Assembly: GCA_045652245.1 (NCBI GenBank)
Contig: JAZRTY010000023.1
Coordinates: forward strand, 38,588-102,587
DNA from: Eubacteriales bacterium
Lineage (GTDB): Bacteria; Bacillota; Clostridia; Oscillospirales; CAG-382
Direction of reading: 5' to 3'
DNA length: 64,000 bases
Position 1 is the stretch's first letter. Each line of letters begins with the position of its first letter. Shown here piece after piece: positions 1 to 46,116 of the stretch. The notes beneath the pieces were generated by a model. That model worked only from the letters and a program-made list of their open reading frames with translations, was not told the origin of the DNA and ran no database searches. The translations under genes and the position numbers were made by a program.

Positions 1-2011
1 TAAGCTTGATATTAACTGCCGGATATTCGTCATCGGTTGTATCGGCAAGCTTTGTATATTCAGTTACCATCTGACGTATAATCTGTGCCTGGTCACGTCC
101 TGTTGTAATCCAAACCTCAAGAACACCTTCTTTTCCTTCAAGGTCTTCTGTTGCACCTACTGAGTTGTAGTTAGCAAAGAAGGAGTTGATGAAGGCTGTG
201 AATTCGTGCTTGATGTTCTGGAAGAAATTACCTGTAGCACGAGGTCTGAAGTCGGAATCGGTCGGAACTACAACAATATAGTCAAGTGCCAACGGCTGGC
301 TTCTTGCTGTAAGAATCCATGTACCGAGTGAACCGATATAGGACTTGTAGTTTGCAAGGTTTGCTGCAACCTTGGTTTCATCGTTACCCATTATATCAAG
401 AAGGTATGCAATCTTATCAAGAATTACAGACTGGTCACCCTTTTCACCGATAAGTGCTTCAAGATTTGAAGAAATTTCGGTAAGGAGCGCACTTTCCTGT
501 CTCATACCACGAAGAACATCAGGAATAAGTGAAGCAAAGTCGTAGTCGAGGTATGCATCGGGCTGAGTACCTGTAATCATAATAATTTTTCTGTAGTATT
601 CATTCATTCTTGAAAGGCTCTCATCGATCTGAAGAAGGATATCACCCATATCTCCGAGAACAGCTTCAAGCTTGAGCTCGTATTTCTTACCCTTTTCAAA
701 GTAGAACATAAAATCCTCAGTATCACTTCCGAGGGGCTTTGTCTGCCAATCATCGGAATAGTCAAATCTTATGTTTCTTGCTTCAACAAAGGGTTCCTCG
801 CCATTTATGTAGATTTTACGTGAAGAGAACAGACCTGCATTTACGTTCTGCATATATCTCGGGATGATATAATAAAGTCCATCTTCTTCTACTTCAAATT
901 CGTATGTAACCCACTGACCTGCAAGCTGCCATGTTGAACCACCGATTGAGTTAAGTCTGATTGCACTTGAATGCTGCGGCTCTGTAATCGGTGATGTTCT
1001 GTCGTTTAACGGATAAACAACCTGTTCACTCGTTGCTGCAGGAACTTCTGCATCCATCTTTACAATATTGCTTGTCGAAGGAGACTTGTAGCCATTCTTT
1101 TCGTATTCAGCCTTAATTTCTTCGTATGTCTTAACCTTTTCAAGAGGAGCAATGCTGATGCTCTTTAAAAGGAGAGGTTCACGGGAACCGTCAAGAGTGA
1201 TTGTATGCTCTCCTGCTTCAAAATAAAATTCAAAGGGGGCATCATGGAAGGTATCAGCATCGGTAAAGAACTTTGTAACCCACTCAGGCTTTTCAACCTT
1301 TGTCGGACGAATTTCATTCTGATAGTAGTCATACTTAAAGTATCTACCCTCTTCTCTGAAATTCTTTTTGCCGTCTTCAAGCTCCTCGTTTACCGCCTTC
1401 GCATTTGAATCAGCATTTGAGGAGTCTATATCTGTACCTACCTTATAGAGCTTTTCGGGAACAATAAAGCCTTCTGCCTCGTAATCTTCCTTCCAGATTC
1501 TGGAGAAAGTAAGGTATCTTGCTTCCTTGAAAGGAACTCTTCCATCGACAAACAATACTCTCTCAATAGACGCACTGTTTCCGGGATAAGGATAATAGTC
1601 GGTAGAAATAGAATAGAGACCGGGAGTCTTTATTTCAAAATTCCATACAACCTTTCCTGTATCGGGAGTAAGAAGGCTTCCACCTATGTCGCCGTCATAA
1701 TCCTCGAGTACCTGAACTGCTGCCGTTGTTTTTTCCTCGTCATAGTCCACCGCATTGATAACGAGGCTGTCCTCGCCCTTTTCTGGATTATCAAGCTTTG
1801 CAAGATATTCCGAATAGGTTGTGGATGTCATAATTTCTGCTGTTGCGGCAAGTGAATTCAAGGTTGTGCTGTTTTTGATGTTCTTTTCAACTTCTTCAGG
1901 TGTATCTGCAAAAGCTGTGAAAGAACCTGTAACCGAGCTCGCAAGCAACGCCGCCAGCAACACGGACACTATGGCATTTCTTCCGTGCTTTGATTTTTTC
2001 GCCATTTTCAT
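1..2011 (-). CDS. Secreted multidomain protein with solute-binding-protein-like C-terminal region (partial; C-terminus lies beyond window start)
   Basis: Own minus-strand translation: ATG at 2011 follows GGGGGA; N-terminus MKMAKKSKHGRNAIVSVLLAALLASSVTGSFTAFA looks like a signal peptide; frame open for 670 codons to position 2; last residues ...GVLEVWITTGRDQAQIIRQMVTEYTKL resemble extracellular solute-binding proteins. Missing from the ORF track because it runs off the edge. Confidence 0.6.
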   Translation of the reverse strand, partial: MKMAKKSKHGRNAIVSVLLAALLASSVTGSFTAFADTPEEVEKNIKNSTTLNSLAATAEIMTSTTYSEYLAKLDNPEKGEDSLVINAVDYDEEKTTAAVQVLEDYDGDIGGSLLTPDTGKVVWNFEIKTPGLYSISTDYYPYPGNSASIERVLFVDGRVPFKEARYLTFSRIWKEDYEAEGFIVPEKLYKVGTDIDSSNADSNAKAVNEELEDGKKNFREEGRYFKYDYYQNEIRPTKVEKPEWVTKFFTDADTFHDAPFEFYFEAGEHTITLDGSREPLLLKSISIAPLEKVKTYEEIKAEYEKNGYKSPSTSNIVKMDAEVPAATSEQVVYPLNDRTSPITEPQHSSAIRLNSIGGSTWQLAGQWVTYEFEVEEDGLYYIIPRYMQNVNAGLFSSRKIYINGEEPFVEARNIRFDYSDDWQTKPLGSDTEDFMFYFEKGKKYELKLEAVLGDMGDILLQIDESLSRMNEYYRKIIMITGTQPDAYLDYDFASLIPDVLRGMRQESALLTEISSNLEALIGEKGDQSVILDKIAYLLDIMGNDETKVAANLANYKSYIGSLGTWILTARSQPLALDYIVVVPTDSDFRPRATGNFFQNIKHEFTAFINSFFANYNSVGATEDLEGKEGVLEVWITTGRDQAQIIRQMVTEYTKLADTTDDEYPAVNIKL

Positions 2012-2700
2012 TAACTGTTTCCCCCTATAATTGAGTTTACATAAAGCAGTACTCAGCATCCTTTTTTTTGCAAGCACAGTAGTAGCATATAATTCCCGAA
2101 ATAGCTACACCGTTATTGCAAGAGTGTTCTGTTCTACCATAAATATATATCGGCAGACAAGAACACTGAAAAATGAGCGCAAAATACCACAAAATCTCAT
2201 ACTGATAGAATACCATAAATTCTATTTTTTGTCAAGAATATAAAATATTCGCAATTGCTTTTTCCTCTGTTTTTTCGACGATTTTCTTTTTGAGATTTTT
2301 ACCATCCGAAGCAATCAAACACAAATATATTATTCTTATTCGACAAAAATACTGCACAAATTTCGTACTAATAATATATTTTTGTTCCTCAAAATTCCGT
2401 ATTTTCAACTTATATAAGGCTTTAATAGCGACACAAAATTCGCAATATTATATTTTAACTCTTGTTAATATTATTTTTAAAATATGTATACACTTTGCAA
2501 CTGATTTTTTCAAGCTTGTTTTGTTTGATTTTTTTCCTGTTATTGGAATTGTTGTTCGTGATTTTGCACAATTTTAAAGTATTTTTTTCTACACCTTGTT
2601 GCAACTGCCAATTTTGATTTTTTGATTTTTATGCACCGTTTTTGTTAGGATTTTTGCAGTTTTTAACTGTTTTTATGTTTTTTAGTTAAGCCAAACAATA

Positions 2701-2733
2701 CAAAAAAGTGGCATGGCTCATCGCCACACCACT
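2701..2733 (-). terminator. Rho-independent terminator downstream of groEL
   Basis: On the minus strand GTGGC-(g)ATG..CAT-GCCAC stem followed by TTTTTTG, immediately after the groEL stop. Confidence 0.65.
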
Positions 2734-2757
2734 TTCTTTTTTTGCTATCCTGTCTTA

Positions 2758-4386
<1,629 letters not shown>

Positions 4387-4416
4387 TTACCTCCAAAGAT
4401 CAGATTACATATAGAA

Positions 4417-4749
<333 letters not shown>

Positions 4750-4795
4750 TCAGCTTGTACTTTGTATACGTTTATTAAATGTGATTTTATTCAAA

Positions 4796-4822
4796 TTAGC
4801 ACTCTTGCACTTCGAGTGCTAA
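4796..4822 (-). promoter_or_regulatory. CIRCE operator (HrcA binding site)
   Basis: TTAGCACTC-N9-GAGTGCTAA, an exact match to the CIRCE consensus, in the groES 5' leader. Confidence 0.95.
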
Positions 4823-4834
4823 TTCACAAACGGT

Positions 4835-4863
4835 ATTTTATTACAAATAATAGTAAAAATCAA
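4835..4863 (-). promoter_or_regulatory. Sigma-A-type promoter of groES-groEL
   Basis: Minus strand TTGATT -17 nt- TAAAAT, ending about 12 nt upstream of CIRCE. Confidence 0.5.
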
Positions 4864-4956
4864 TAGGTTTACCTATATGTTTACATTTTTTTAACATATT
4901 TTCCTGTTTATATTTTACCCTTTATTCGCTTTGAAATTTTATTGCTTTCTGACTTT

Positions 4957-6135
4957 TTACTTTCGTTTATCACAAAAGCCATTCTTGCCGGCAAAAGGTC
5001 TTGTATTTCCATCTTTTTTGTAGTACTGATAAAGATAACATTTTATCATACCGTTATACAGCTTTCTTGACTTATCGCAGCGTCTGCCATAGAGATATTG
5101 GAAGTCCTCCTCACTTGTAAGCAGATACATCTGCCAGGGTGGCACGAGTGTTGAGAAAGCTTTGCCGAGTTTTTTGTAAAGCTCTCTTGCTTCTCTTATC
5201 GTTCCAAGCCTTTCACCATATGGTGGATTGCAGACAACAGTCATTCTCTCCCCTGTGTCTGTGATAGTCAGGGCGTCCTTTGTAAAAACTTTTATGTGCT
5301 TTTCCATTCCTGCTCTTTTTGCGTTTTCAAGAGTAAGCTTTACGCAGTCCTTTGAAATATCCGATGCCCACGCCATAAACGGAGTATCGGGATTTATTTT
5401 CTCCTGTGCCTCACGCCTTGCTTCCTTCCAGTACTTTTTATCAATAAAGCTGTAATGCTCGGAGGAAAATCTGCGATTTATTCCGGGAGCAGTATTTGTC
5501 ATAATGAGTGCTGCTTCTATTGCAATTGTACCCGAGCCACAGAAGGGGTCATAGGTTATTACGTTTTCTCTCGGTCTTGAAAGCTTAACAAGAGCTGCGG
5601 CAAGAGTTTCACGAAGTGGCGCTTCTGCCGATTTTTCACGATAACCTCTTTTAAAAAGTGGCTCACCCGATGTATCTATCATCAGAGTTGCTTTGTTATC
5701 AAGGATGAAAAATTCAATTTTCAGCTTTGTTTCGTTTTCCTCAAACCAATCAACATTATATACACTTTTCAGTCTTTCAACCATTGCTTTCTTAACGATG
5801 CTCTGGCAATCGGGAATACTTGTAAGCTGTGATTTTACTGAATGTCCGGAATTCGGGAAGGCATCATTTACACGGATATATTTCTCCCAGGGAATCGCTT
5901 TCGTTCCGTCAAAAAGCTCTGTAAAGGTTTCAGCGTAAAACTGTCCTGCGACAATATACACCCTCTCGGCACAGCGCAGATTTATATTACATCTCGGGAT
6001 TGCACTGACATCTCCCTCAAAATATATTCTTCCGTCTATAGTTTCAAGACGCGTGTATCCAAGCTCGTCTATCTCCTGTCCGACAAGCCCTTCAAGCCCA
6101 AAAAGACAGGTGGCGCAATATTTTAATTTTTCCAT
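4957..6135 (-). CDS. THUMP-domain class I SAM-dependent RNA methyltransferase (COG0116 type)
   Basis: 392 aa; N-terminal CATCLFGLEGL.., DPFCGSGTIAIEAAL (SAM motif I) and NPPYGERLG (motif IV). Confidence 0.8.
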   Translation of the reverse strand: MEKLKYCATCLFGLEGLVGQEIDELGYTRLETIDGRIYFEGDVSAIPRCNINLRCAERVYIVAGQFYAETFTELFDGTKAIPWEKYIRVNDAFPNSGHSVKSQLTSIPDCQSIVKKAMVERLKSVYNVDWFEENETKLKIEFFILDNKATLMIDTSGEPLFKRGYREKSAEAPLRETLAAALVKLSRPRENVITYDPFCGSGTIAIEAALIMTNTAPGINRRFSSEHYSFIDKKYWKEARREAQEKINPDTPFMAWASDISKDCVKLTLENAKRAGMEKHIKVFTKDALTITDTGERMTVVCNPPYGERLGTIREARELYKKLGKAFSTLVPPWQMYLLTSEEDFQYLYGRRCDKSRKLYNGMIKCYLYQYYKKDGNTRPFAGKNGFCDKRK

Positions 6136-6181
6136 TTATACCTCAAGCCAAGTACTAAAATTTATGTATTGTTTTAAAAAA

Positions 6182-6643
6182 TTATTCTTTACCGTCACCG
6201 TTTACCTCGTCGTATACCGAGGTGTATTCATTTGTGTTTCCGTCGCCCCTTGAAAGCAGGTAATTTACAAATGCGCAAAGTGCTGTTACCACAGCATAAA
6301 TTATCACAAAGGCAGTACTGAGCACAACAACATTCATAAGCTTTGAGGTATCCTTTACCATCGCTATGAAGCATATATAAAAGGCGATATAGCAAATTAC
6401 AAATCTTATTATGTGTGCAAGAGCACTGTTCAGTTTTTTCGGTATAGCCGTTATAACGCTCGAAAGAGCACAAAGTGCCGAAAACAGAAGTATCTGCAAA
6501 AACAGAAGCATAACTCCACCCCAGGTGGGTGCTTCTTCGATTCCGACTAACCTGTTAAGTGCCATCATACCAAGTGAAACACAAGAAAAGAGCGCAAAGG
6601 TGATATTAAAAAATTTTCCGATAAGGTTAAATGTCTTTTTCAT
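6182..6643 (-). CDS. Hypothetical integral membrane protein
   Basis: 153 aa with about four hydrophobic segments; no recognisable family. Confidence 0.5.
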   Translation of the reverse strand: MKKTFNLIGKFFNITFALFSCVSLGMMALNRLVGIEEAPTWGGVMLLFLQILLFSALCALSSVITAIPKKLNSALAHIIRFVICYIAFYICFIAMVKDTSKLMNVVVLSTAFVIIYAVVTALCAFVNYLLSRGDGNTNEYTSVYDEVNGDGKE

Positions 6644-6864
6644 AGCTTATTATCTCCCAGTTTCTGTATTTTAACATCTTCGAGTATATCATATTTCTTT
6701 TGAACATTCAAGACATATTTAAAGGAATAAAGTTGAATATTCTATTAAATTTCAGCTTATTTTGCATTTTTCTTTACAGTGTATATCTATTTATTTCAAT
6801 ATTTTGTTATATAATAAACCTGATACAAGTAATTTGACTGTATAACCAGCGTGGAGGTGAATTC

Positions 6865-7401
6865 ATGAAAAGAAAGGAAATAAAAAAGCTTGCAATTTCC
6901 GCAATACTTTGCGCTTTTTCGGTGGTGGTTCTGCTCATTGGCAGTATTTTTGAAATGGTGGACATAACCTGTGCCGCAATTGCTTCGGGTGCTATCGCTT
7001 TTTCTGCACTTGAACTTAGAGGAAAATACTCTGTTCTTATTTTTGCCGTAACTGCCCTGCTTTCCTTTATATTGTTTCCACTTTCAAGTGCTTCAATTTT
7101 CTATATAGCCTTTCTTGGCTATTATCCGATAATAAAGGTTTATATTGAAAAAATTAAGGGGATTTTTTCTGCAATTTTAAAGCTTATAATATTCAATGGT
7201 TCGTTTTTTGTCATTTTCAGTATTTTCAGAAGCTTATTCCTCTCACAGGAAGCAGATACATCCCCGATAATCTTAATTTTACTGATCGTTTTTGCCAACA
7301 TTTTCTTTATCGTTTACGATATAGCTCTGAATGTCCTGATAACGGCATACAAGCGTGTCTTTCGCAAAAAATGGGGTATTGACAGATTTCTTGACTTTTA
7401 A
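6865..7401 (+). CDS. Hypothetical integral membrane protein
   Basis: 178 aa, multiple hydrophobic helices; GGAGGTG RBS 6 nt upstream of ATG. Confidence 0.6.
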   Translation: MKRKEIKKLAISAILCAFSVVVLLIGSIFEMVDITCAAIASGAIAFSALELRGKYSVLIFAVTALLSFILFPLSSASIFYIAFLGYYPIIKVYIEKIKGIFSAILKLIIFNGSFFVIFSIFRSLFLSQEADTSPIILILLIVFANIFFIVYDIALNVLITAYKRVFRKKWGIDRFLDF

Positions 7402-7511
7402 TTCCGTAAGTAATATAAAATTTTTCCGATAATATTCACACGAATGTCACAATGTACTGTTATAATTATTAATTGTGGCAAACAATTAAACTCAAAGGAA
7501 GGATACAAAAA

Positions 7512-8555
7512 ATGAAAAAAACAAAAATCGTAGCTTTAGCGCTCAGCGCAATTCTTTGTGCATCAACCTTTATCGGATGCTCTCCCCAAACTCCTGTAAA
7601 TAACCTTGCAGTAAACGCAGACCTGGGTCTGTCACAGTACAACTGGAAGTACGCCGATGACGAGGTAATGTTTACTGTCGGTGATACACCTGTGGATTTC
7701 GCAGAATACCGTTATTATGTTATGAATGCAAGAGCGAGCTTTGACGGTGGTGATGTTTCTTACTGGAATGCCGAAACAGCAACGGAGTTTTCAGACTACA
7801 TTATCAATGAAATCAAACTTTTGAGCGCTCTTCGCAGTTATTGCGAAAAAAATAATATTGTTCTGAGCGAAAAAGATAAACAGGAAATTGCCAATACCGG
7901 TTATGAAGCCTTCGGTATGACCCAGGAAGAATACAATAGCTGGTTGGAAGGTACTTATTTAACAGAAGAACTTTTCGAGAAAAGCTTTGTTGATCAGTAT
8001 CTTATCCAGAACCTTTATAAGAGTTGTACCTCCGACGAAGAAATCAAGGCATATGCACAGGAAAACTATGTAAGAGCTTCTCATATTCTCGTTTCAACCC
8101 TTGACGAAAACGGTCTGCCTCTTGAAGGGGATGCTCTTGACGAAAAGACAGCACTTGCAAACAGCTTATATCAAAGAGCACTCGCAGGTGAAGATTTTGA
8201 TGCACTTATAGAGGAATACGGTGAAGACCCCGGAATGACAACTCATCCAAACGGTTACTTCTTTACAAAAGGTGTGATGGTTAAAGAATTTGAAGACAAG
8301 TCCTTCGAACTTGAAGTTGGTCAAATCGGCGAGCCCGTCAAGACTAATTTTGGTTATCACATTATAAAGAAGCTTCCTCTTGACGTAGAGTATGAAATCG
8401 CAAATGAAACTACCGAATATTGGGATATGGTTTATGCTTTAGGTAGCGAAGAGGGTTATAATCTTATTGTTGAATATGCAAACACACTGCCTGTTGAAAA
8501 AACCGATGCTTTCAACGACCTTAATATTGGTAATATTATTGTTTCAAAAAAATAA
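7512..8555 (+). CDS. PpiC/PrsA-type peptidyl-prolyl isomerase lipoprotein
   Basis: Start moved to ATG 7512 (AAGGAAGGA RBS). MKKTKIVALALSAILCASTFIGCS has a lipobox; parvulin signature ...FGYHIIKK near the C-terminus. Confidence 0.8.
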   Translation: MKKTKIVALALSAILCASTFIGCSPQTPVNNLAVNADLGLSQYNWKYADDEVMFTVGDTPVDFAEYRYYVMNARASFDGGDVSYWNAETATEFSDYIINEIKLLSALRSYCEKNNIVLSEKDKQEIANTGYEAFGMTQEEYNSWLEGTYLTEELFEKSFVDQYLIQNLYKSCTSDEEIKAYAQENYVRASHILVSTLDENGLPLEGDALDEKTALANSLYQRALAGEDFDALIEEYGEDPGMTTHPNGYFFTKGVMVKEFEDKSFELEVGQIGEPVKTNFGYHIIKKLPLDVEYEIANETTEYWDMVYALGSEEGYNLIVEYANTLPVEKTDAFNDLNIGNIIVSKK

Positions 8556-8567
8556 TTATAAAAACTT

Positions 8568-8605
8568 AAGGCTTCTGCAGGATTCTGCAGAAGCCTTATT
8601 TTTAT
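8568..8605. terminator. Bidirectional terminator between convergent genes
   Basis: AAGGCTTCTGCAG-gatt-CTGCAGAAGCCTT, perfect 13-bp stem, then ATTTTTATT. Confidence 0.8.
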
Positions 8606-37052: not shown

Positions 37053-38150
37053 TCACCCCTCAAGAGATGTTTTCCTTTTTAAAAAGATATTCTTTGCCAC
37101 AATGAAAGCAATGGGAAACAGAAAAAGTCCTATTACCCCAAACAGGCGTATTCCGACATACATTGAAAAAAGAGCAAGTAAGGGGTGAAGTCCGAGAAAA
37201 CCCCCGACTATTTTCGGCTCAATGCTTTGCCGTATAACTGTCATTAATATATACAGTACAACCAATCCGATTGCCTTTTTGTAGCTATCAAAGATAAAAA
37301 GTACAAATGCCCACGGCAGAAGTATTGCTCCTATTCCGAATATCGGCAGAATATCGACAGCTGCAGTAAGGGTAGAAATGAGAAAGGAATATTTCACTCC
37401 GATAATATTAAGTCCCACATAAAGCTCACAAAAGGTAAGCGCAAACAGTATCGAATAAGCCCTGAAATATCCGGATATAACATCAAAAAGCTCGTTTTTT
37501 ACCGTAAAAAGTATCTTTCGTGTTTTTTTGGGGAATATTCCGGCAACACTTCTGTTTATATTTTCAAGGTCACAGCTGAAATACACACTTGCAACAACCG
37601 TCACAAGCAAAACAACCATAGAATACGGCACCGTTTTTATAAGAGTACCGATAAAATTTCCGATTACAGGAACAAGTGATAAAAAAATTTCCGAGAGCCT
37701 TGCTGCAAAATTTTCTTCAAAGCTGACCCTGCCGGTTTTGTCGATAAGCCTTTCCCCGATATAAGGTATTTTCCTCATTGTTATTTCTGCTTTTTCCCCT
37801 ATCTCCTGTACAGCCCCCAGTATATTATCAATTACGCCCTTATCCGAGGAAAGCTTTGCATAAATATCCGAAATCTGATGAATGAGCATAGAAAAAAAGA
37901 GGTAAACAAGATACCCCACAACAAAAATTGCAACAGTCGTACAAACAACACTCGCACTTTTCCGGCTTAACCTTGTTTTATCCGACAGAAATTTTGAAGG
38001 CTTTTTAAGTCCCGTTACAAAAAGCCATGCCACGAGGAAGGGAAAAACAGCAGAAAACAAATATTTAAAAGCAACGATAAGCAGTAATAATCCAAGTACT
38101 ATACAGAGTAAAATACAGGCTATTTTTATAAAAATATTTTCCTTTGACAT
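37053..38150 (-). CDS. AI-2E family transporter / YtvI-like sporulation membrane protein
   Basis: About 365 aa polytopic membrane protein; start preferred at ATG 38150 (GGTGA upstream) over the track start at 38174. Confidence 0.65.
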   Translation of the reverse strand: MSKENIFIKIACILLCIVLGLLLLIVAFKYLFSAVFPFLVAWLFVTGLKKPSKFLSDKTRLSRKSASVVCTTVAIFVVGYLVYLFFSMLIHQISDIYAKLSSDKGVIDNILGAVQEIGEKAEITMRKIPYIGERLIDKTGRVSFEENFAARLSEIFLSLVPVIGNFIGTLIKTVPYSMVVLLVTVVASVYFSCDLENINRSVAGIFPKKTRKILFTVKNELFDVISGYFRAYSILFALTFCELYVGLNIIGVKYSFLISTLTAAVDILPIFGIGAILLPWAFVLFIFDSYKKAIGLVVLYILMTVIRQSIEPKIVGGFLGLHPLLALFSMYVGIRLFGVIGLFLFPIAFIVAKNIFLKRKTSLEG

Positions 38151-38367
38151 TCTTTTCACCGTAATCTTAAACATTATATTTATAAGAGTATTATATTCCG
38201 CTTCTTTTTATTTATTACCCTACCCGTATTTTAGCGTCAGGTACATTTTTCTCGTATTTCCTGAAAACGTATATTTTACTTTTTTAGTGTAAATTGCATA
38301 AAAATACTGCTTTTTATCTTGAAAGGTTATTATTTTTTCAAAAAATGACAAAAATTTCAAAAAAGGT

Positions 38368-38403: not shown

Positions 38404-38629
38404 CGTGATACTAATCATACCGTTGAAATTTTCGGAATTGAACTGAACAAAACCGAAAATTGAGGAACTCTGGAGAATCCCAAATTGCCAATTTGGGTGC
38501 CGAAGGTGCAAGGCGAATTTCGCCGAATCTCTCAGGCAAAAGGACAGAGCAGACAAACACACATTTTGTGTCTGCATATGTATTTTTCCGGAGCTATTGA
38601 TTTTTATCAATAGTTTTATTTTTTTATTT
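38404..38629 (+). promoter_or_regulatory. Glycine riboswitch (single aptamer) with terminator-type expression platform
   Basis: Aptamer 38468-38549: CTCTGGAGA...TGCCGAAGGTGCAA...CTCAGGCAAAAGGACAGAG with P1 CTCTG/CAGAG. Upstream 9-bp hairpin AATTTTCGG/CCGAAAATT (38427-38461). Downstream hairpin CTATTGAT-tttt-ATCAATAG plus a long T-run (38594-38629) just before the RBS. Confidence 0.85.
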
Positions 38630-38646: not shown

Positions 38647-40071
38647 ATGCAGGACGCAATTCTTAATGTCGTTGCAAAGATCAACGGCTATCTTTCGGAC
38701 TATATTCTTATAGTTCTTCTCGTAGGTATAGGTCTATTCTATTCTTTCAAAACAAGATTCGTACAGGTTCGCTGCTTTGGCGAGGGTATGAAAAAGGTTT
38801 TCGGCAATGTCAAGCTTTTCGGTGCAAAGAACACAGGTGGCGGTCTCTCCTCCTTCCAGGCACTTGCTACTGCAATCGCCGCCCAGGTAGGTACAGGTAA
38901 TATCGTTGGGGCTTCAGGTGCTATCCTTGTCGGTGGTCCCGGCGCTATCTTCTGGATGTGGGTTATCGCTTTCCTCGGTATGGCAACAATTTACGCAGAA
39001 GCGGTACTCGCTCAGGAAACCAAAGTGAAGGATGCTGACGGAAATATCCACGGTGGTCCCGTTTACTACATAAAAAAGGCATTCCCCAATGGCTTCGGTA
39101 AGTTCCTTGCAGGCTTCTTCTCTATCGCTGCAATTCTTGCTCTCGGCTTTATGGGTTCTATGGTTCAGTCAAACTCTATTGCTGAATCCTGCAACACAGC
39201 ATTCGGTATCCCCGGCTATGTAGTAGGTATTATACTTGCAGTTATTTCCGCTATTATCTTTATCGGTGGTATTCAGAGAATCGCATCTGTTACAGAAAAG
39301 ATGGTACCCTTTATGGCTTCCCTCTTCCTTCTCGGTGGTCTTATAGTTCTTATTCTTAACATCAAGTACATTCCCGCAACTATCGGAATGATTTTCAAAT
39401 ACGCCTTCACACCTGATGCTCTTATCGGTGGTGGTATCGGTTATGCTCTTAAAACTGCTATCTCGCAGGGTGCTAAGCGTGGTCTTTTCTCAAACGAAGC
39501 AGGTATGGGTTCTACACCTCACGCACACGCACAGGCAAACGTTGAAAAGCCTCACGACCAGGGTGTTGCCGCTATGATCGGTGTATTTATAGATACTTTC
39601 GTAGTTCTTACAATGACAGCTCTTGTTGTTATCACAATGCTTTATGCAAAAGACGGTGCAATTCTTAACGGTCTTGCAGGTGAAGCATACAGTGCCGCAA
39701 CTTCAGGTGCAGCTGCTATCGTATCCAAGACAAGTGCTATGCAGACAGCCGTTGGTTCTGCCTTCGGTACAAACTTCGGTAACATATTCGTAGCTATCTG
39801 TCTGCTCTTCTTTGCTTACTCAACAATTATCGGCTGGAACTTCTTCGGCAAGATTAACGTTCAGTATATGTTCAAGAACAGCAAGGTTGCAACAATCATC
39901 TATTCTGTAATCGCAATTCTCTTCATTTTCCTCGGAACACTTGCTTCAAACGACCTTGTTTGGGAGCTTACAGACTTCTTTAACTACCTTATGGTTCTTC
40001 CCAACGTTATTGCTCTTGCATTCCTTTCAAAGCTTGTAGTAAAAGCTGCAAAGTCCAACAAAAACAAATAA
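38647..40071 (+). CDS. Sodium:alanine/glycine symporter (AGCS family)
   Basis: 474 aa polytopic; ..FQALATAIAAQVGTGNIVG.., ..GLFSNEAGMGS.. typical AGCS motifs. Confidence 0.9.
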   Translation: MQDAILNVVAKINGYLSDYILIVLLVGIGLFYSFKTRFVQVRCFGEGMKKVFGNVKLFGAKNTGGGLSSFQALATAIAAQVGTGNIVGASGAILVGGPGAIFWMWVIAFLGMATIYAEAVLAQETKVKDADGNIHGGPVYYIKKAFPNGFGKFLAGFFSIAAILALGFMGSMVQSNSIAESCNTAFGIPGYVVGIILAVISAIIFIGGIQRIASVTEKMVPFMASLFLLGGLIVLILNIKYIPATIGMIFKYAFTPDALIGGGIGYALKTAISQGAKRGLFSNEAGMGSTPHAHAQANVEKPHDQGVAAMIGVFIDTFVVLTMTALVVITMLYAKDGAILNGLAGEAYSAATSGAAAIVSKTSAMQTAVGSAFGTNFGNIFVAICLLFFAYSTIIGWNFFGKINVQYMFKNSKVATIIYSVIAILFIFLGTLASNDLVWELTDFFNYLMVLPNVIALAFLSKLVVKAAKSNKNK

Positions 40072-42143: not shown

Positions 42144-42173
42144 TTGACATTCACTGTAATAATATGTTATAAT
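42144..42173 (+). promoter_or_regulatory. Near-consensus sigma-A promoter pointing toward the split GH18 gene
   Basis: TTGACA -18 nt- TGtTATAAT; followed by about 320 nt without any credible ORF before ATG 42496. Confidence 0.6.
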
Positions 42174-42495: not shown

Positions 42496-43353
42496 ATGAT
42501 TTTTCACGAAGTAAAAAGTGGTGAAACTCTATCACAAATCGCACGAAATTATGGTACAAGTGTTGCAAGTCTTGTAGCCTATAACGGAATTCCGAATCCC
42601 GAGTCTCTCGCTGTCGGACAATGTATCGTTATCGTGTATCCCGAACTTTTACATACCGTTCGTACAGGTGAAACAATATTTTCAATAGCCTTACGGTACG
42701 GAACAAGTGTAAATCAAATCTACAGGAACAATCCCCAACTCTCCTCGCTTCCGGAGCTTTACCCGGGCGAAGTACTTGTAATAGAGCTTGAGGATGACAG
42801 AATTGCCTCCTTTGAAACCGGAGGCTATGCCTACCCCGATACCCCTGAGGAGCTTCTTCGCTCACAGATGCCGTTTATGAACTATTTTATGCCCTTCACC
42901 TACGGTTTTTCAGGTGAAGGAGCTCTTACAAGTGCTACCGACGCAAACCTTATCGCTCTTGCCCACAGATACGGAAGAAAATGCTTTCTGCACCTCTCCA
43001 CGCTTACAGAAGAAGGCTATTTTTCAAATGAAATTGCAAATGTAATTCTGAACAGCCCAACACTTACCGAAACCCTTATAGGTAACATTCTTCGGGAGGT
43101 AACAGATAAGGGCTTTGACGGAGTCGACATTGATTTTGAATTTGTATATGCAGATGACGCCTATAAATATGCTGAGTTTGTTGATAGGCTTCGTACTGTT
43201 ATGAATGAAGCAGGTTACGAGGTATTCGTCGCACTTGCGCCAAAAACGAGTGATGACCAGGCAGGTCTTCTTTACGAGGGGCACCTTTACCGTGAGCTTG
43301 GACAGGCTGCAAATGCTGTGCTTCTTATGACATATGAATGGGGCTATACATAA
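42496..43353 (+). CDS. LysM-LysM-GH18 spore peptidoglycan hydrolase (YaaH/SleL type), 5' segment, interrupted
   Basis: 285 aa: two LysM repeats (HEVKSGETLSQIARNYG.., HTVRTGETIFSIALRYG..), then a GH18 barrel with catalytic GVDIDFE. Ends ...LLMTYEWGYT at a stop created at the insertion junction. GGAG RBS. Confidence 0.85.
   Translation: MIFHEVKSGETLSQIARNYGTSVASLVAYNGIPNPESLAVGQCIVIVYPELLHTVRTGETIFSIALRYGTSVNQIYRNNPQLSSLPELYPGEVLVIELEDDRIASFETGGYAYPDTPEELLRSQMPFMNYFMPFTYGFSGEGALTSATDANLIALAHRYGRKCFLHLSTLTEEGYFSNEIANVILNSPTLTETLIGNILREVTDKGFDGVDIDFEFVYADDAYKYAEFVDRLRTVMNEAGYEVFVALAPKTSDDQAGLLYEGHLYRELGQAANAVLLMTYEWGYT
43343..43352. repeat. attL core (GCTATACATA)
   Basis: Identical to 45689-45698; flanking bases differ on both sides (g/c before, a/c after). 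Confidence 0.85.
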
Positions 43354-43393
43354 CACCATTGTTGTTACAAATACACAGGACAAAGGAGAAATT

Positions 43394-43636
43394 ATGGAAT
43401 GCTGCGAAATATTATCATTTAATATCTGGAAATATGAAAAGGAGCATAATATGACAACCGAAGAGCTTGCTGCACTTTGTAACCTTACGCCAAAGCAAAT
43501 ACGCGCAATCGAAAACGCAAAGCTTAATCTGAACATATCATTACTCGACAAACTGAGTATTGGTATGGGGATGACTCCGGCACAGCTTATGCAGACAGAC
43601 GGAAAATTTGCCAAAATTAAAAAAATCAGCCACTGA
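43394..43636 (+). CDS. Small XRE-type HTH protein, element-encoded (paralog 1)
   Basis: 80 aa from ATG 43394 (AAAGGAG RBS 5 nt upstream): MECCEILSFNIWKYEKEHNMTTEELAALCNLTPKQIRAIENAKLNLNISLLDKLSIGMGMTPAQLM... Confidence 0.75.
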   Translation: MECCEILSFNIWKYEKEHNMTTEELAALCNLTPKQIRAIENAKLNLNISLLDKLSIGMGMTPAQLMQTDGKFAKIKKISH

Positions 43637-43663
43637 CAGTTCTACAATAAGGGAGAAGACAAA

Positions 43664-43873
43664 ATGAAATGCTATGAAATCCTTGCAAGAAATTTAAAGA
43701 AGCATCGCCATGAGTATAACATTTCCGGTGAGTATCTTGCCTACGACTGTGAGCTGAGTCCGAGATGCTTTAACGACATTGAGAATATGAAGGAAATAAT
43801 TACCTTTGAAACTCTTGATAAGCTTTGTACAGGTACCGGTCTTCCTCCCGATATTCTCTTATCGGAAAATTAG
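43664..43873 (+). CDS. Small XRE-type HTH protein, element-encoded (paralog 2)
   Basis: 69 aa, GGGAG RBS; ungapped by-eye alignment to paralog 1 gives 27 identities over 66 positions (MxCxEIL..N..K...E.N...E.LA..C.L.P.....IEN.K.......LDKL..G.G..P..L). Confidence 0.75.
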   Translation: MKCYEILARNLKKHRHEYNISGEYLAYDCELSPRCFNDIENMKEIITFETLDKLCTGTGLPPDILLSEN

Positions 43874-44061
43874 CTTTTTTCATCCCCGAAGCACAGCTTA
43901 CATTCTATATTTACTTTATCAGAAATATGGAATTTTGTAAATTCCCCACTGAGAACAGCACTCGACAATTGCTTTTCAAGCAGCTTTATATTTTCCTCTC
44001 TGTTTTCTGACTGTGCTTTGTGTATGTTCACTATTATTAGATTCTCCGGGCTTTTTTTCAT
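43870..44061 (-). CDS. Small hypothetical protein (63 aa), convergent with the HTH pair and divergent from the recombinase; candidate directionality factor
   Basis: ATG 44061 preceded by GAGAGGTGAAAAGA; MKKSPENLIIVNIHKAQSENREENIKLLEKQLSSAVLSGEFTKFHISDKVNIECKLCFGDEKS; 4-nt overlap with the paralog 2 stop. No recognisable family. Confidence 0.45.
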   Translation of the reverse strand: MKKSPENLIIVNIHKAQSENREENIKLLEKQLSSAVLSGEFTKFHISDKVNIECKLCFGDEKS

Positions 44062-44128
44062 TCTTTTCACCTCTCTTAAAGTCCAGTTAAATCTATGCGT
44101 ACAAGCTGCTTTTAATGATAGCTTATGC

Positions 44129-44158
44129 AATATTTATAATCCTCTGCATATAAATATT
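44129..44158. promoter_or_regulatory. 10-bp perfect inverted repeat in the divergent control region upstream of the recombinase
   Basis: AATATTTATA-10 nt-TATAAATATT; right arm ends 27 nt before recombinase ATG 44185; left arm contains a TATAAT hexamer (44135-44140). Confidence 0.5.
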
Positions 44159-44184
44159 ACATAAATAATCTACAGGGGAAAAAT

Positions 44185-45672
44185 ATGACATACTGCATAT
44201 ATCTTCGAAAATCAAGAGCTGACCTTGAGCTTGAGGAAAAAGGAGAGGGCGAAACTTTAGCACGTCACAAGAAAATACTTTTAGCTCTTGCACAAAGAAA
44301 TAATTATGAAATCGGTAAAATATACAGTGAAATTGTATCGGGAGAAAGCATAACACAACGTCCGGAAATACAAAAACTGCTTTACGACCTTGACTCAGGA
44401 CTCTGGGAAGGCGTACTCGTTATGGAGATTGAACGTCTTGCAAGAGGTGATACAATCGACCAGGGGATAATTGCAAGGGCATTCCGGGAAAACAAAGTCA
44501 AAATCATAACTCCGAACAAAATATACAATCCCGAAAATGAATTCGATGAGGAATATTTCGAGTTTTCCCTCTTTATGAGCAGACGGGAATATAAAACCAT
44601 CAACCGACGTATTCAACGTGGAAGAATTGCCTCGGTAAAGGAAGGAAAATACATCTCCCCCACGCCCCCCTTTGGCTTTGACAGGGAAAAATCACCTGAC
44701 GGTAAAGGCTATGTTCTTTGTAAGAACCCGGTTGAAGCACCTGTGGTACTCAGTATTTACGAGCAATTTCTTGCCTGTCACAGCATCTTGGAAATTTGCA
44801 ATACCCTTAACCTTTGCGGTATAAAGCCACGAAAAAGTGATTCCTGGTCACGCTCTTCAATCCGTGATATACTGAAAAACCCCGCAAATGCAGGCTTTAT
44901 CCGTTGGGCAAGAAGGAAAAATTCAAAGATTAAAGAGGGAAACAGCATAAAAATTTCAAGAAAAATCTGCGACGATTATATTCTTGTACAGGGAATGCAC
45001 GAGGGAATTGTCAGCCGGGAAGAATATGAACTTGCTCTTGAAATACTGCAGAAAAACAGGAAAAACACCTCCCGTTCCGACAGGACACTTAAAAACTCTC
45101 TGTCGGGACTTGTTTTTTGTAAGGCTTGTGGAAAACCCTTATCAAGAAGCGCAAACAAAAACGGTGATTTGCTCATTTGCAAAACCAAGGGTTGTCCTAC
45201 CGTGTCCGAAAAACTGTCAAGAATTGAGTCTGCTGTCATTTGTGAGCTTGAAAAATATTACAATGGTACTTATTTGTTTTTTGACAAGGCAAAAGAAAGT
45301 GAAAAAAGCAAGCATTCAGAAAGTATTTTATCATCGCTTTTAAAACAGAAAAAAAGCCTTGAAACCCAGCTTGAGAATATATATACCCTTGTTGAAAAGG
45401 GCATTTACAGTGATGCCGAATATCTGAAGCGCAGAAAAAATCTGCTTCATCAAAGGAGTATGTGCGAAAAAGAAATTGAAAAATATCAAAAGGCAGGTAC
45501 AGTGACCTCTGAAGCTTTTACAGGAGAAAAGACAGATGTTTTTGAGTTTTATAAAGCTCTCGGAAGCGTCGAAGATAAAAACAGACTTCTTAGGTGTATT
45601 ATCCAAAAGATTACATATAGAAAAAGTGAAGCCCGTGGCAAGGTAGAGCTTGAAATTTTTGTCAAAATATAG
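44185..45672 (+). CDS. Large serine recombinase (resolvase catalytic domain + recombinase domain + zinc ribbon + coiled coil)
   Basis: 495 aa; N-terminal YCIYLRKSRAD with the presumptive catalytic Ser10; ..ERLARGD..; zinc ribbon CKACGKPL...LICKTKGCP; C-terminal heptad-like region. Same strand as the interrupted gene. Confidence 0.9.
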   Translation: MTYCIYLRKSRADLELEEKGEGETLARHKKILLALAQRNNYEIGKIYSEIVSGESITQRPEIQKLLYDLDSGLWEGVLVMEIERLARGDTIDQGIIARAFRENKVKIITPNKIYNPENEFDEEYFEFSLFMSRREYKTINRRIQRGRIASVKEGKYISPTPPFGFDREKSPDGKGYVLCKNPVEAPVVLSIYEQFLACHSILEICNTLNLCGIKPRKSDSWSRSSIRDILKNPANAGFIRWARRKNSKIKEGNSIKISRKICDDYILVQGMHEGIVSREEYELALEILQKNRKNTSRSDRTLKNSLSGLVFCKACGKPLSRSANKNGDLLICKTKGCPTVSEKLSRIESAVICELEKYYNGTYLFFDKAKESEKSKHSESILSSLLKQKKSLETQLENIYTLVEKGIYSDAEYLKRRKNLLHQRSMCEKEIEKYQKAGTVTSEAFTGEKTDVFEFYKALGSVEDKNRLLRCIIQKITYRKSEARGKVELEIFVKI

Positions 45673-45688
45673 TTGTATGATAAACGGC

Positions 45689-45698
45689 GCTATACATA
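45689..45698. repeat. attR core (GCTATACATA)
   Basis: Identical to 43343-43352; same reading frame relative to the GH18 codons (TAT ACA TA.). Confidence 0.85.
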
Positions 45699-46116
45699 CG
45701 GCCCACCACTACCTGTTTCACCGATTTTTGCAGTTAGAAGAGTTCTCGACTATGCAATAACACGAATTCCCCGTGAGAAAATTTTTATGGGAATGTCAAA
45801 CTACGGCTATGACTGGTCACTTCCGTATGTAAAGGGAGAATCTATGGCTCGTTCCCTCTCAACCGATGAGGCTCTGCTGCTTGCTTCAGAGAATGGTGCT
45901 GAAATAAAATACGATACAAGTGCCGCATCACCATATTTCAATTATGTAAAGGACAACATTATCCACGAGGTCTGGTTTGAGGATGCAAGAAGCATCGGGG
46001 AACGTCTCTCCCTCTGTGCAGAATACGGTTTTCGTGGTTGCCTTTACTGGAATTTATCCAGAAGAAATGTTCAGAATTTACTTATGATAAATCTGCTTAT
46101 TGATTTGAATGACTGA
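45697..46116 (+). CDS. GH18 spore peptidoglycan hydrolase, 3' segment (continues 42496-43350 after element removal)
   Basis: 139 aa YGPPLPVSPIFAVRRVLDYAITRIPREKIFMGMSNYGYDW...LYWNLSR.. (GH18 C-terminal strands). No RBS or plausible start of its own; the track start at TTG 45673 lies inside the element arm. Confidence 0.85.
   Translation, partial: YGPPLPVSPIFAVRRVLDYAITRIPREKIFMGMSNYGYDWSLPYVKGESMARSLSTDEALLLASENGAEIKYDTSAASPYFNYVKDNIIHEVWFEDARSIGERLSLCAEYGFRGCLYWNLSRRNVQNLLMINLLIDLND

Follow-up and report, generated by a model that had tools for sequence, protein, structure and literature searches.

Sporulation gene-intervening elements are textbook examples of programmed DNA rearrangement, for which a handful of targets have been described. 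These include sigK, spsM, spoVFB, spoVR, gerE and yabG (PMC4191935, PMC10747680). The elements skin, SPβ, gin and skinCd are excised in the terminal mother cell alone (PMC4191935, PMC5595907, PMC5025042). The attachment (att) sites of SPβ comprise a 16-bp core, a symmetric attP of 52 bp and an attB without symmetry, with cleavage at the dyad centre (PMC5499854). In skinCd, a 12-bp motif, 22-bp imperfect inverted repeats and 5-bp outer repeats were reported (PMC5025042), and in gin a 9-bp core lies within a 27-bp imperfect inverted repeat (PMC5595907). Here we analyse a 64,000-nt stretch of DNA (from here: the window) from Eubacteriales bacterium, a member of the Clostridia (assembly GCA_045652245.1, contig JAZRTY010000023.1), in which a homolog of the spore cortex-lytic gene sleL/yaaH is interrupted by a four-gene element. 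Taken as a whole, the locus is probably best explained as a gene-intervening element within sleL that carries a recombinase of the SprA type and whose excision by recombination between attL and attR restores the gene and is confined to the mother cell.

By its published description, skinCd of C. difficile (recombinase CD1231 and factor CD1234, in sigK) resembles this element in being clostridial, in interrupting a mother-cell sporulation gene and in having a Ser10 recombinase. Its 12-bp motif compares with a 10-bp core here, and its 5-bp outer repeats with the TTGTA/TACAA tips of the arms described below. It differs in its target, sigK instead of sleL/yaaH, and in its size of 14.6 kb against 2.3 kb and four genes. 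With SPβ (in spsM of B. subtilis; SprA/SprB) the element shares an identity core, a symmetric attP, a non-symmetric attB and a dyad-centre crossover inside a codon, whereas SPβ is an active 134-kb phage with an AA crossover and the element has a predicted AC crossover and lacks phage genes. Like the present element, gin (in gerE of B. cereus; GirC/GirX) is an intervening element that is not a prophage, and its crossover was also predicted from the dyad centre (PMC5595907), but it has 31 genes and three recombinases against one recombinase and three small genes here, where prophage relatives occupy the same site. The best NCBIfam match of the recombinase is XisF of the Anabaena fdxN element, another case of developmental excision in a terminally differentiated cell; with 113 bits against a 375-bit cutoff the protein is not a member of this family, and phylum and target gene differ. 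In the limited set of literature searched, which is no proof of absence, we found no report joining sleL or yaaH with an intervening element or a recombinase. The element reads as a new, very small example of the skin/SPβ type of switch; its sleL target is apparently new and its size unusually small, while the att-site architecture itself is conventional.

The element spans positions 43353-45698 of the window (2,346 bp) within the sleL/yaaH coding sequence. At its ends stand two copies of GCTATACATA, both on the + strand and hence a direct repeat, and there is no third copy in the 64 kb. The bases flanking the copies differ on the left (G versus C) and on the right (A versus C), which bears out the 10-bp identity core with differing flanks that was proposed in an earlier, model-made reading of the letters (from here: the sequence-only reading). 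By itself a 10-bp identity is unremarkable, because other exact 10-mers also repeat within the same 2.7 kb (families D1 and D20). The repeat was judged real because joining across the core restores a reading frame that is continuous in more than 70 intact orthologs. In silico, the join of 42496-43352 with 45699-46116 yields an unbroken frame of 1,275 nt that encodes 424 amino acids (aa) without a stop, so that restoration of the frame by precise excision, the mark of a sporulation gene-intervening element, was found in silico. The intact Clostridia orthologs (n > 70) read ...MTYEWGYTYGP... unbroken at the junction point, and one of the intact orthologs, L022, holds the exact 23-nt junction GAATGGGGCTATACATACGGCCC expected from excision. 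The TAA at 43351-53 that ends the 5′ part of sleL is created by the junction. The sole recombinase belongs to the serine integrases, which do not duplicate their target, and attB/attP identity accounts for the core; a target-site duplication made by a transposase was therefore ruled out.

The restored protein of 424 aa has the domain order LysM-LysM-GH18. Its residues 4-416 align with the Bacillus YaaH/SleL structures 4S3K (E 2.6e-81) and 4S3J (E 1.4e-70), the alignment crosses the junction without a break, and a 51%-identical ortholog is labelled 'Spore germination protein YaaH' in the database source. Judged by these similarities, the split gene is a full-length homolog of the spore cortex-lytic YaaH/SleL. 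SleL/YaaH of Bacillus is made in the mother cell. The insertion thus interrupts the reading frame of a mother-cell sporulation gene, as in the described gene-intervening elements, the mother-cell expression being taken over from Bacillus. The window is ordinary chromosome (GroEL, PriA, LeuS, MutS/L, PknB), and we take the host to be a spore former because the window carries the sporulation-specific gene ytvI for a sporulation integral membrane protein (37053-38174, - strand; TIGR02872 with 225 bits against a 198-bit cutoff).

Two paralogous helix-turn-helix (HTH) genes, an open reading frame (ORF) of 63 aa and the gene of a 495-aa large serine recombinase make up the insert (Table 1). The recombinase matches the Resolvase domain PF00239 (61 bits, cutoff 23.3) and the Recombinase domain PF07508 (71 bits), and its zinc ribbon PF13408 scores 23.8 bits, slightly below the Pfam cutoff of 25.3. 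The nearest solved structure is SprA of SPβ (9dxh, E 2.7e-38, residues 6-484), with which the CxxC and C...C cysteines align. Ser10, within YLRKSR, aligns to SprA Ser22, the residue changed in the S22A control (PMC5499854); in CD1231 the catalytic serine is likewise S10 (PMC5025042). By domain content, the protein qualifies as a large serine recombinase, with a catalytic domain containing the serine, a Recombinase domain and a zinc-ribbon domain. An IS607-type serine transposon was rejected (NF033518, 17 bits against a 110-bit cutoff), the architecture being that of a large serine recombinase. PHROGs recognized only an integrase and transcription regulators in the element and no structural phage genes. 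The structural, lysis or replication genes that define a prophage are lacking, and with four genes on 2.3 kb the element is at most the remnant of a prophage such as L084, introduced below.

Table 1. Positions of the features of the interrupted sleL/yaaH locus within the window
Feature	Position	Strand	Remarks
5′ part of sleL/yaaH	42496..43353	+	285 aa, LysM-LysM and first two thirds of GH18
Predicted attL	43324..43373	+	B half-site, AC, P′ half-site; extent of ~±24 bp estimated from dyad analysis
Left core copy GCTATACATA	43343..43352	+	
Predicted crossover AC in attL	43348..43349	+	First two bases of Thr codon ACA
P′ arm ACCATTGTTGTTACAA, as defined in the sequence-only reading	43355..43370	+	In the 41-nt gap between sleL fragment and HTH1
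HTH1	43394..43636	+	80-aa Cro/C1-type HTH; ribosome-binding site GGAG 43385-88
HTH2	43664..43873	+	69-aa Cro/C1-type HTH; HTH1 paralog, 40% identity
63-aa ORF	43870..44061	-	Family-less, convergent with HTH2; candidate recombination directionality factor
Putative recombinase control region	44123..44164	+	16-nt inverted repeat (94% complementary, 10-nt spacer; I4) around box GCATATAAATA 44146-56
Large serine recombinase	44185..45672	+	495 aa, predicted catalytic Ser10
Predicted attR	45670..45719	+	P half-site (from recombinase stop codon), AC, B′ half-site
P arm TTGTATGATAAACGGC, as defined in the sequence-only reading	45673..45688	+	Starts right after recombinase stop
Right core copy GCTATACATA	45689..45698	+	Predicted crossover AC 45694-95
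3′ part of sleL/yaaH	45699..46116	+	Frame continues from 43352

The two 16-nt arms had been read as inverted repeats that agree in 10 of 16 positions and end in perfect TTGTA/TACAA tips, and both points hold; a match of this quality has P ~0.003 against random window pairs. As had also been noted, the P arm begins at the first nucleotide past the recombinase stop codon (TAG, 45670-72). When the circle junction is rebuilt, the resulting attP dyad matches at 15 of 24 positions counted from the centre, or at 16 of 24 flanking positions if the central AC is excluded. The best centre lies between core positions 6 and 7, on AC 43348-49/45694-95. Compared with 20,000 70-mers drawn from the window at random or as chimeras, this symmetry exceeds chance, the point on which the sequence-only reading had been ready to fall, with P ~0.005 for a centre free to fall at any core position and P ~0.0004 for the fixed centre. 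The half-site pattern TTGTANNANNAANGGNGNTATAC occurs in the window only at the two P arms (0.03 expected), which shows uniqueness and not independent significance because the pattern was built from the same two arms.

For attB, the dyad matches at 8-9 of 24 positions, which is the chance level. The shorter symmetry that had been ascribed to this site is present as written, TGGGGC matching GGCCCA at 5 of 6 positions, and finds no statistical support once extended. Similarly, the core had been called the only identity between the junctions; the exact identity is indeed limited to 10 bp, but a wider likeness exists, as the chromosomal B arm resembles the P arms, with ATGAATGGGGCTATACATA and ATAAACGGCGCTATACATA matching at 16 of 19 positions (D4). 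Because of this resemblance attL is itself symmetric (14/24), compared with 9/24 for attR. All four half-sites have TAT at positions -1 to -3 and GG at -7 and -8 in common. The predicted junctions of the window are GAATGGGGCTATACATACGGCCCACC for attB and GATAAACGGCGCTATACATAACACCATTG for attP. What is expected of an attP was found here: ~50 bp with an imperfect dyad around a non-palindromic central dinucleotide, and an attB that shares only the short core. The interpretation as att sites of a large serine recombinase is supported by the domains, by the SprA alignment and by the significant attP dyad, which is kept in relatives.

Two Logan contigs, L001 and L002, carry the same four-gene element at the same sleL position, with recombinases 85% and 75% identical to that of the window; L134 represents the L001 lineage again. 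In JGI metagenomes, no relative above ~55% identity was found except short fragments, and the close relatives came only from Logan (L001/L134 and L002). The element boundaries in L001 and L002 are the same as in the window, a comparison that could have spoken against the sequence-only reading. In L002 the recombinase gene (2095-3408) encodes 437 aa instead of 495, 58 residues fewer, with an intact N-terminus (MAYCI...). The predicted attB of L001 is GAATGGGGTTATACATACGGTCCACC. The attP dyad matches at 15/24 positions in L001 and at 19/24 in L002, and the P′ arms of L002 and the window are identical at only 15 of 24 positions; by this comparison it is the symmetry of the att sites that is conserved rather than their sequence. 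The stop made by the junction after the 5′ part of sleL is TAA in the window and in L001 and TAG in L002. This preservation through a substitution suggests selection against translation entering the element.

The same relatives narrow the crossover. The identity between attL and attR shrinks to TATACATA in L001 and is GCTA[C/T]ACATA in L002, and these mismatches leave ACATA or TA (core positions 3-4) for a crossover shared by all three elements. A palindromic crossover dinucleotide such as TA or AT would abolish the polarity of insertion. As TA and AT are palindromic, the crossover should be AC or CA, and AC was chosen over CA because the dyad centre falls on it; the predicted crossover dinucleotide is thus AC at 43348-49/45694-95. 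If the sites are real and the dyad centre is misleading, the crossover would lie elsewhere in the shared core, for instance at CA (43349-50) or at the TA step. The comparative data alone lead no further than ACATA or TA at core positions 3-4, and the AA crossover of SprA needed experimental mapping (PMC5499854). However, the window, L001, L002 and an independent prophage with a 41%-identical recombinase all have their dyad centre on AC. This prophage is inverted and known from both ends (L091 6480-6735 and L135 12560-12850); it has an 11-bp core, TATACCTATGG, an attP dyad of 15/24 and the same AC of the Thr codon. The junctions of further relatives fit AC as well, identity starting at -2 in L108 and stopping +2 after AC in L129, L115 and L103, while the TA and AT steps meet the polarity objection. 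A crossover outside AC is on balance unlikely.

Rates of nonsynonymous and synonymous substitution (dN, dS) were compared between the window and L001. The dN/dS was 0.126 for the recombinase (dS 0.61), 0.065 for HTH1 (dS 0.61), 0.04 for HTH2 (dS 0.46), 0.079 for the 5′ part of sleL (dS 0.71) and 0.024 for its 3′ part (dS 0.91), next to 0.101 for the host gene PFK (dS 0.53) and 0.07 for the host gene DeoR (dS 0.67). By these ratios the recombinase, the HTH genes and both sleL halves are under purifying selection, which lends indirect support to the claim of the sequence-only reading that the element still has competent sites. An old prophage remnant that permanently inactivates sleL, with an att symmetry that is merely an unused fossil, would be in keeping with the lack of any phage structural gene, with the shortened L002 recombinase and with the failure to find an empty site or a circle junction in the databases searched, IMG/VR included. 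Yet a dead gene would drift to a dN/dS of 1 and gather stops or frameshifts, of which there are none in three lineages. Instead, purifying selection on both sleL halves and the recombinase is strong across lineages at a dS of ~0.6-0.9, and the attP symmetry was kept despite the divergence of the arms; we consider a dead relic very unlikely.

The element and the window are similar in G+C (38% and 40%), and dS is equal in element and host genes, which points to a long vertical co-descent. Searches of 5.8 billion proteins recovered close sleL orthologs exclusively as split, 285-aa forms (window, L001/L134 lineage, L002); the nearest intact orthologs have ≤73% identity. Since an unrejoined gene would not stay so constrained, the constraint in three lineages implies that the gene is not permanently split. 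These observations fit an element that is vertically inherited and still functional. By analogy with the described systems, split-only orthologs together with constraint are the pattern expected from excision confined to the terminal mother cell, and excision in this element probably occurs there.

An active element could also work outside development, as a reversible switch ('active lysogeny', as at comK) or as a mobile island that excises in vegetative cells and spreads horizontally. Its HTH pair is similar to phage repressor/Cro regulators, and the relatives of its recombinase are ordinary phage integrases at the same site. Constitutive expression of the recombinase itself has been noted for skinCd and SPβ (PMC5595907). 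But as the element has no replication or transfer genes, the circle would be lost in dividing cells and empty sites should be common, and none was found in the databases searched; the equal dS of element and host genes points to vertical descent, and the target is spore-specific, like that of every described case of this kind. Vegetative switching or horizontal spread thus appears improbable, and we prefer developmental excision in the mother cell. On this reading the locus adds a germination/cortex-lysis gene, sleL/yaaH, in uncultured gut Clostridia to the targets of intervening elements, and a stripped 2.3-kb module, one recombinase gene with three small ones, can outlast speciation.

In the mechanism we propose, attL and attR are hybrids in which a chromosomal half-site (B or B′) is joined through the core to a half-site of the element (P′ or P). 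Recombinase dimers bound to both sites would synapse and cut both strands at the central AC; rotation of the subunits and religation would then yield the attB ...GAATGGGGCTAT-AC-ATACGGCCCACC..., restoring the codons W-G-Y-T-Y-G-P. The second product would be a 2.3-kb circle with the symmetric attP TTGTATGATAAACGGCGCTAT-AC-ATAACACCATTGTTGTTACAA. Large serine recombinases act alone on attP and attB and recombine attL with attR only together with a directionality factor. This factor should be HTH1, HTH2 or the product of the 63-aa ORF. HTH1 begins 41 nt past the sleL fragment in the orientation of the host gene, with the P′ arm and the ribosome-binding site in between, and a scan found no terminator-like site between the 5′ part of sleL and HTH1. 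Given this spacing and the missing terminator, HTH1 and HTH2 are presumably co-transcribed when the sleL promoter fires, and such transcription would tie excision to sporulation. If only the mother cell excised the element, it would regain an intact sleL while the spore kept the interrupted copy, and such confinement would explain why the element is fixed and vertically inherited. In practical terms, the locus offers a compact recombinase with predicted attP and attB sites of ~50 bp, a predicted crossover and three candidate directionality factors.

The 11-nt, CATA-type box GCATATAAATA upstream of the recombinase gene is invariant in the three elements amid poorly conserved DNA, and a scan of the region upstream of this gene found no sigma-70-type promoter. 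CATA-type -10 boxes are typical of mother-cell sigma factors. The inverted repeat around the box is partly conserved in L001 and could be an operator for the HTH proteins. A SpoIIID box (KRTAACARK) considered in the P′ arm was dropped, because the match is incomplete and the window contains 13 such 9-mers.

Several points weigh against excision in the mother cell as proposed. No same-clade empty site was present in the databases searched, the predicted attP ATGATAAAYGGNGCTATACATARNNCCAYTNNTGTTACAA had no match in IMG/VR, and no attB or attP excision product was seen. Mother-cell expression of sleL is knowledge from Bacillus carried over to this organism. The preference for AC over CA has the dyad centre as its single ground. 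The distal (zinc-ribbon) motif is expected ~5 bp farther from the centre in attP than in attB, and this offset was not detectable: when P and P′ were compared with B and B′ at varying offsets, no peak appeared at +5, with little power from only four half-sites. The 63-aa ORF is conserved in L001 (72% aa identity) and partly in L002, but it is less constrained than the other genes (dN/dS 0.44) and has no match in Pfam, NCBIfam, PHROGs or PDB. None of the three small proteins matches a known directionality factor, no SprB homolog was detected for the element, and HTH2 shows no similarity to the HTH gene beside the L084 prophage integrase. Finally, the sporulation-sigma-like character of the box GCATATAAATA is presumed from consensus sequences.

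The sleL site is not private to this element. Recombinases 36-50% identical to that of the window abut the same sleL break point, between EWGY and TYGP, in at least 18 of the 49 loci that were fetched by recombinase similarity (L083/L082, L080, L084, L086, L088, L090/L091, L103, L104, L106, L108-L112, L115, L121 and L129). This block of sleL codons is a recurrent integration site of serine-integrase (pro)phages, and both orientations relative to sleL occur among the insertions. In L084, the 49%-identical recombinase lies at one end of a true prophage, with holin and M23 peptidase, that occupies this sleL site. The window element is therefore most readily explained as the last vestige of such a phage; it differs from the related phages and prophages, which have full phage gene sets, in keeping only a recombination and regulatory module. 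Compared with integrases of temperate phages and prophages, the recombinase is 34-49% identical, PhiS63 and C. tetani phages being at 34-42%. Clostridium phage PhiS63 is described as a sigK-intervening element (PMC3442830). In the free phage genomes MT835739 and Dorea phage DO134P1 (~41% identity), the sequence downstream of the integrase gene is unrelated and therefore uninformative on attP.

The phages in L111 and L110, 88% identical in DNA, are joined to opposite sleL halves via nearly the same P arm. This pair looks like a natural flip of orientation via the central dinucleotide or the inner core. The shared, recombinase-proximal arm (L111 ~5040-5130, L110 ~5040-5135) reads ...GCCTTGCCATAATCTxxxATGTCC... 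and is followed by TAT-AC in one and by TAG-GT in the other.

Regulation and site use can be joined in one tentative picture, which we hold to be rather doubtful as a whole: a minimal, self-triggered developmental switch in sleL, set in a codon block that serves phages as a landing pad. The element may then be fully domesticated, apparently the smallest of its kind, with the host promoter as its trigger. Transcripts begun at the sleL promoter would run through attL into HTH1 and HTH2 and so start excision, and the gene would repair itself upon its first transcription in the mother cell. The G-Y-T-Y-G codon block would be widely used by serine-integrase phages of Clostridia in both orientations, and the orientation would be set by a central AC that is flipped to GT in otherwise near-identical attP arms.

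Some further features of the related loci and of the window were observed. In L139 the element arm GATGACTTATAACGTGAGTGGGGCTATACC (the last ~45 nt before the TAYGG match at 74-99, - strand) resembles the usual gene arm GATGACTTATGAGTGGGGCTATACC with five extra bases (AACGT). This excess could be a coincidence, or it could illustrate the 5-bp difference in spacing between attP and attB of serine integrases. Beside the inverted recombinase-sleL junction of L083, positions 1-8600 encode a GH38 mannosidase, a GDSL lipase, a lyxose isomerase and a Na/H exchanger, which are ordinary metabolic and not phage genes, and the 3′ part of sleL is absent from these 8.6 kb; a rearrangement of the chromosome or a large island without phage origin may account for L083. 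In the window, a perfect sigma-70 consensus promoter (TTGACA, 18 nt, TG, TATAAT) lies at 42144-42173. It precedes the sleL start codon by ~320 nt, and no obvious gene follows it directly on its strand. A glycine riboswitch aptamer at 38460-38557 (64.8 bits) precedes an amino-acid carrier gene of the agcS family at 38647-40071.

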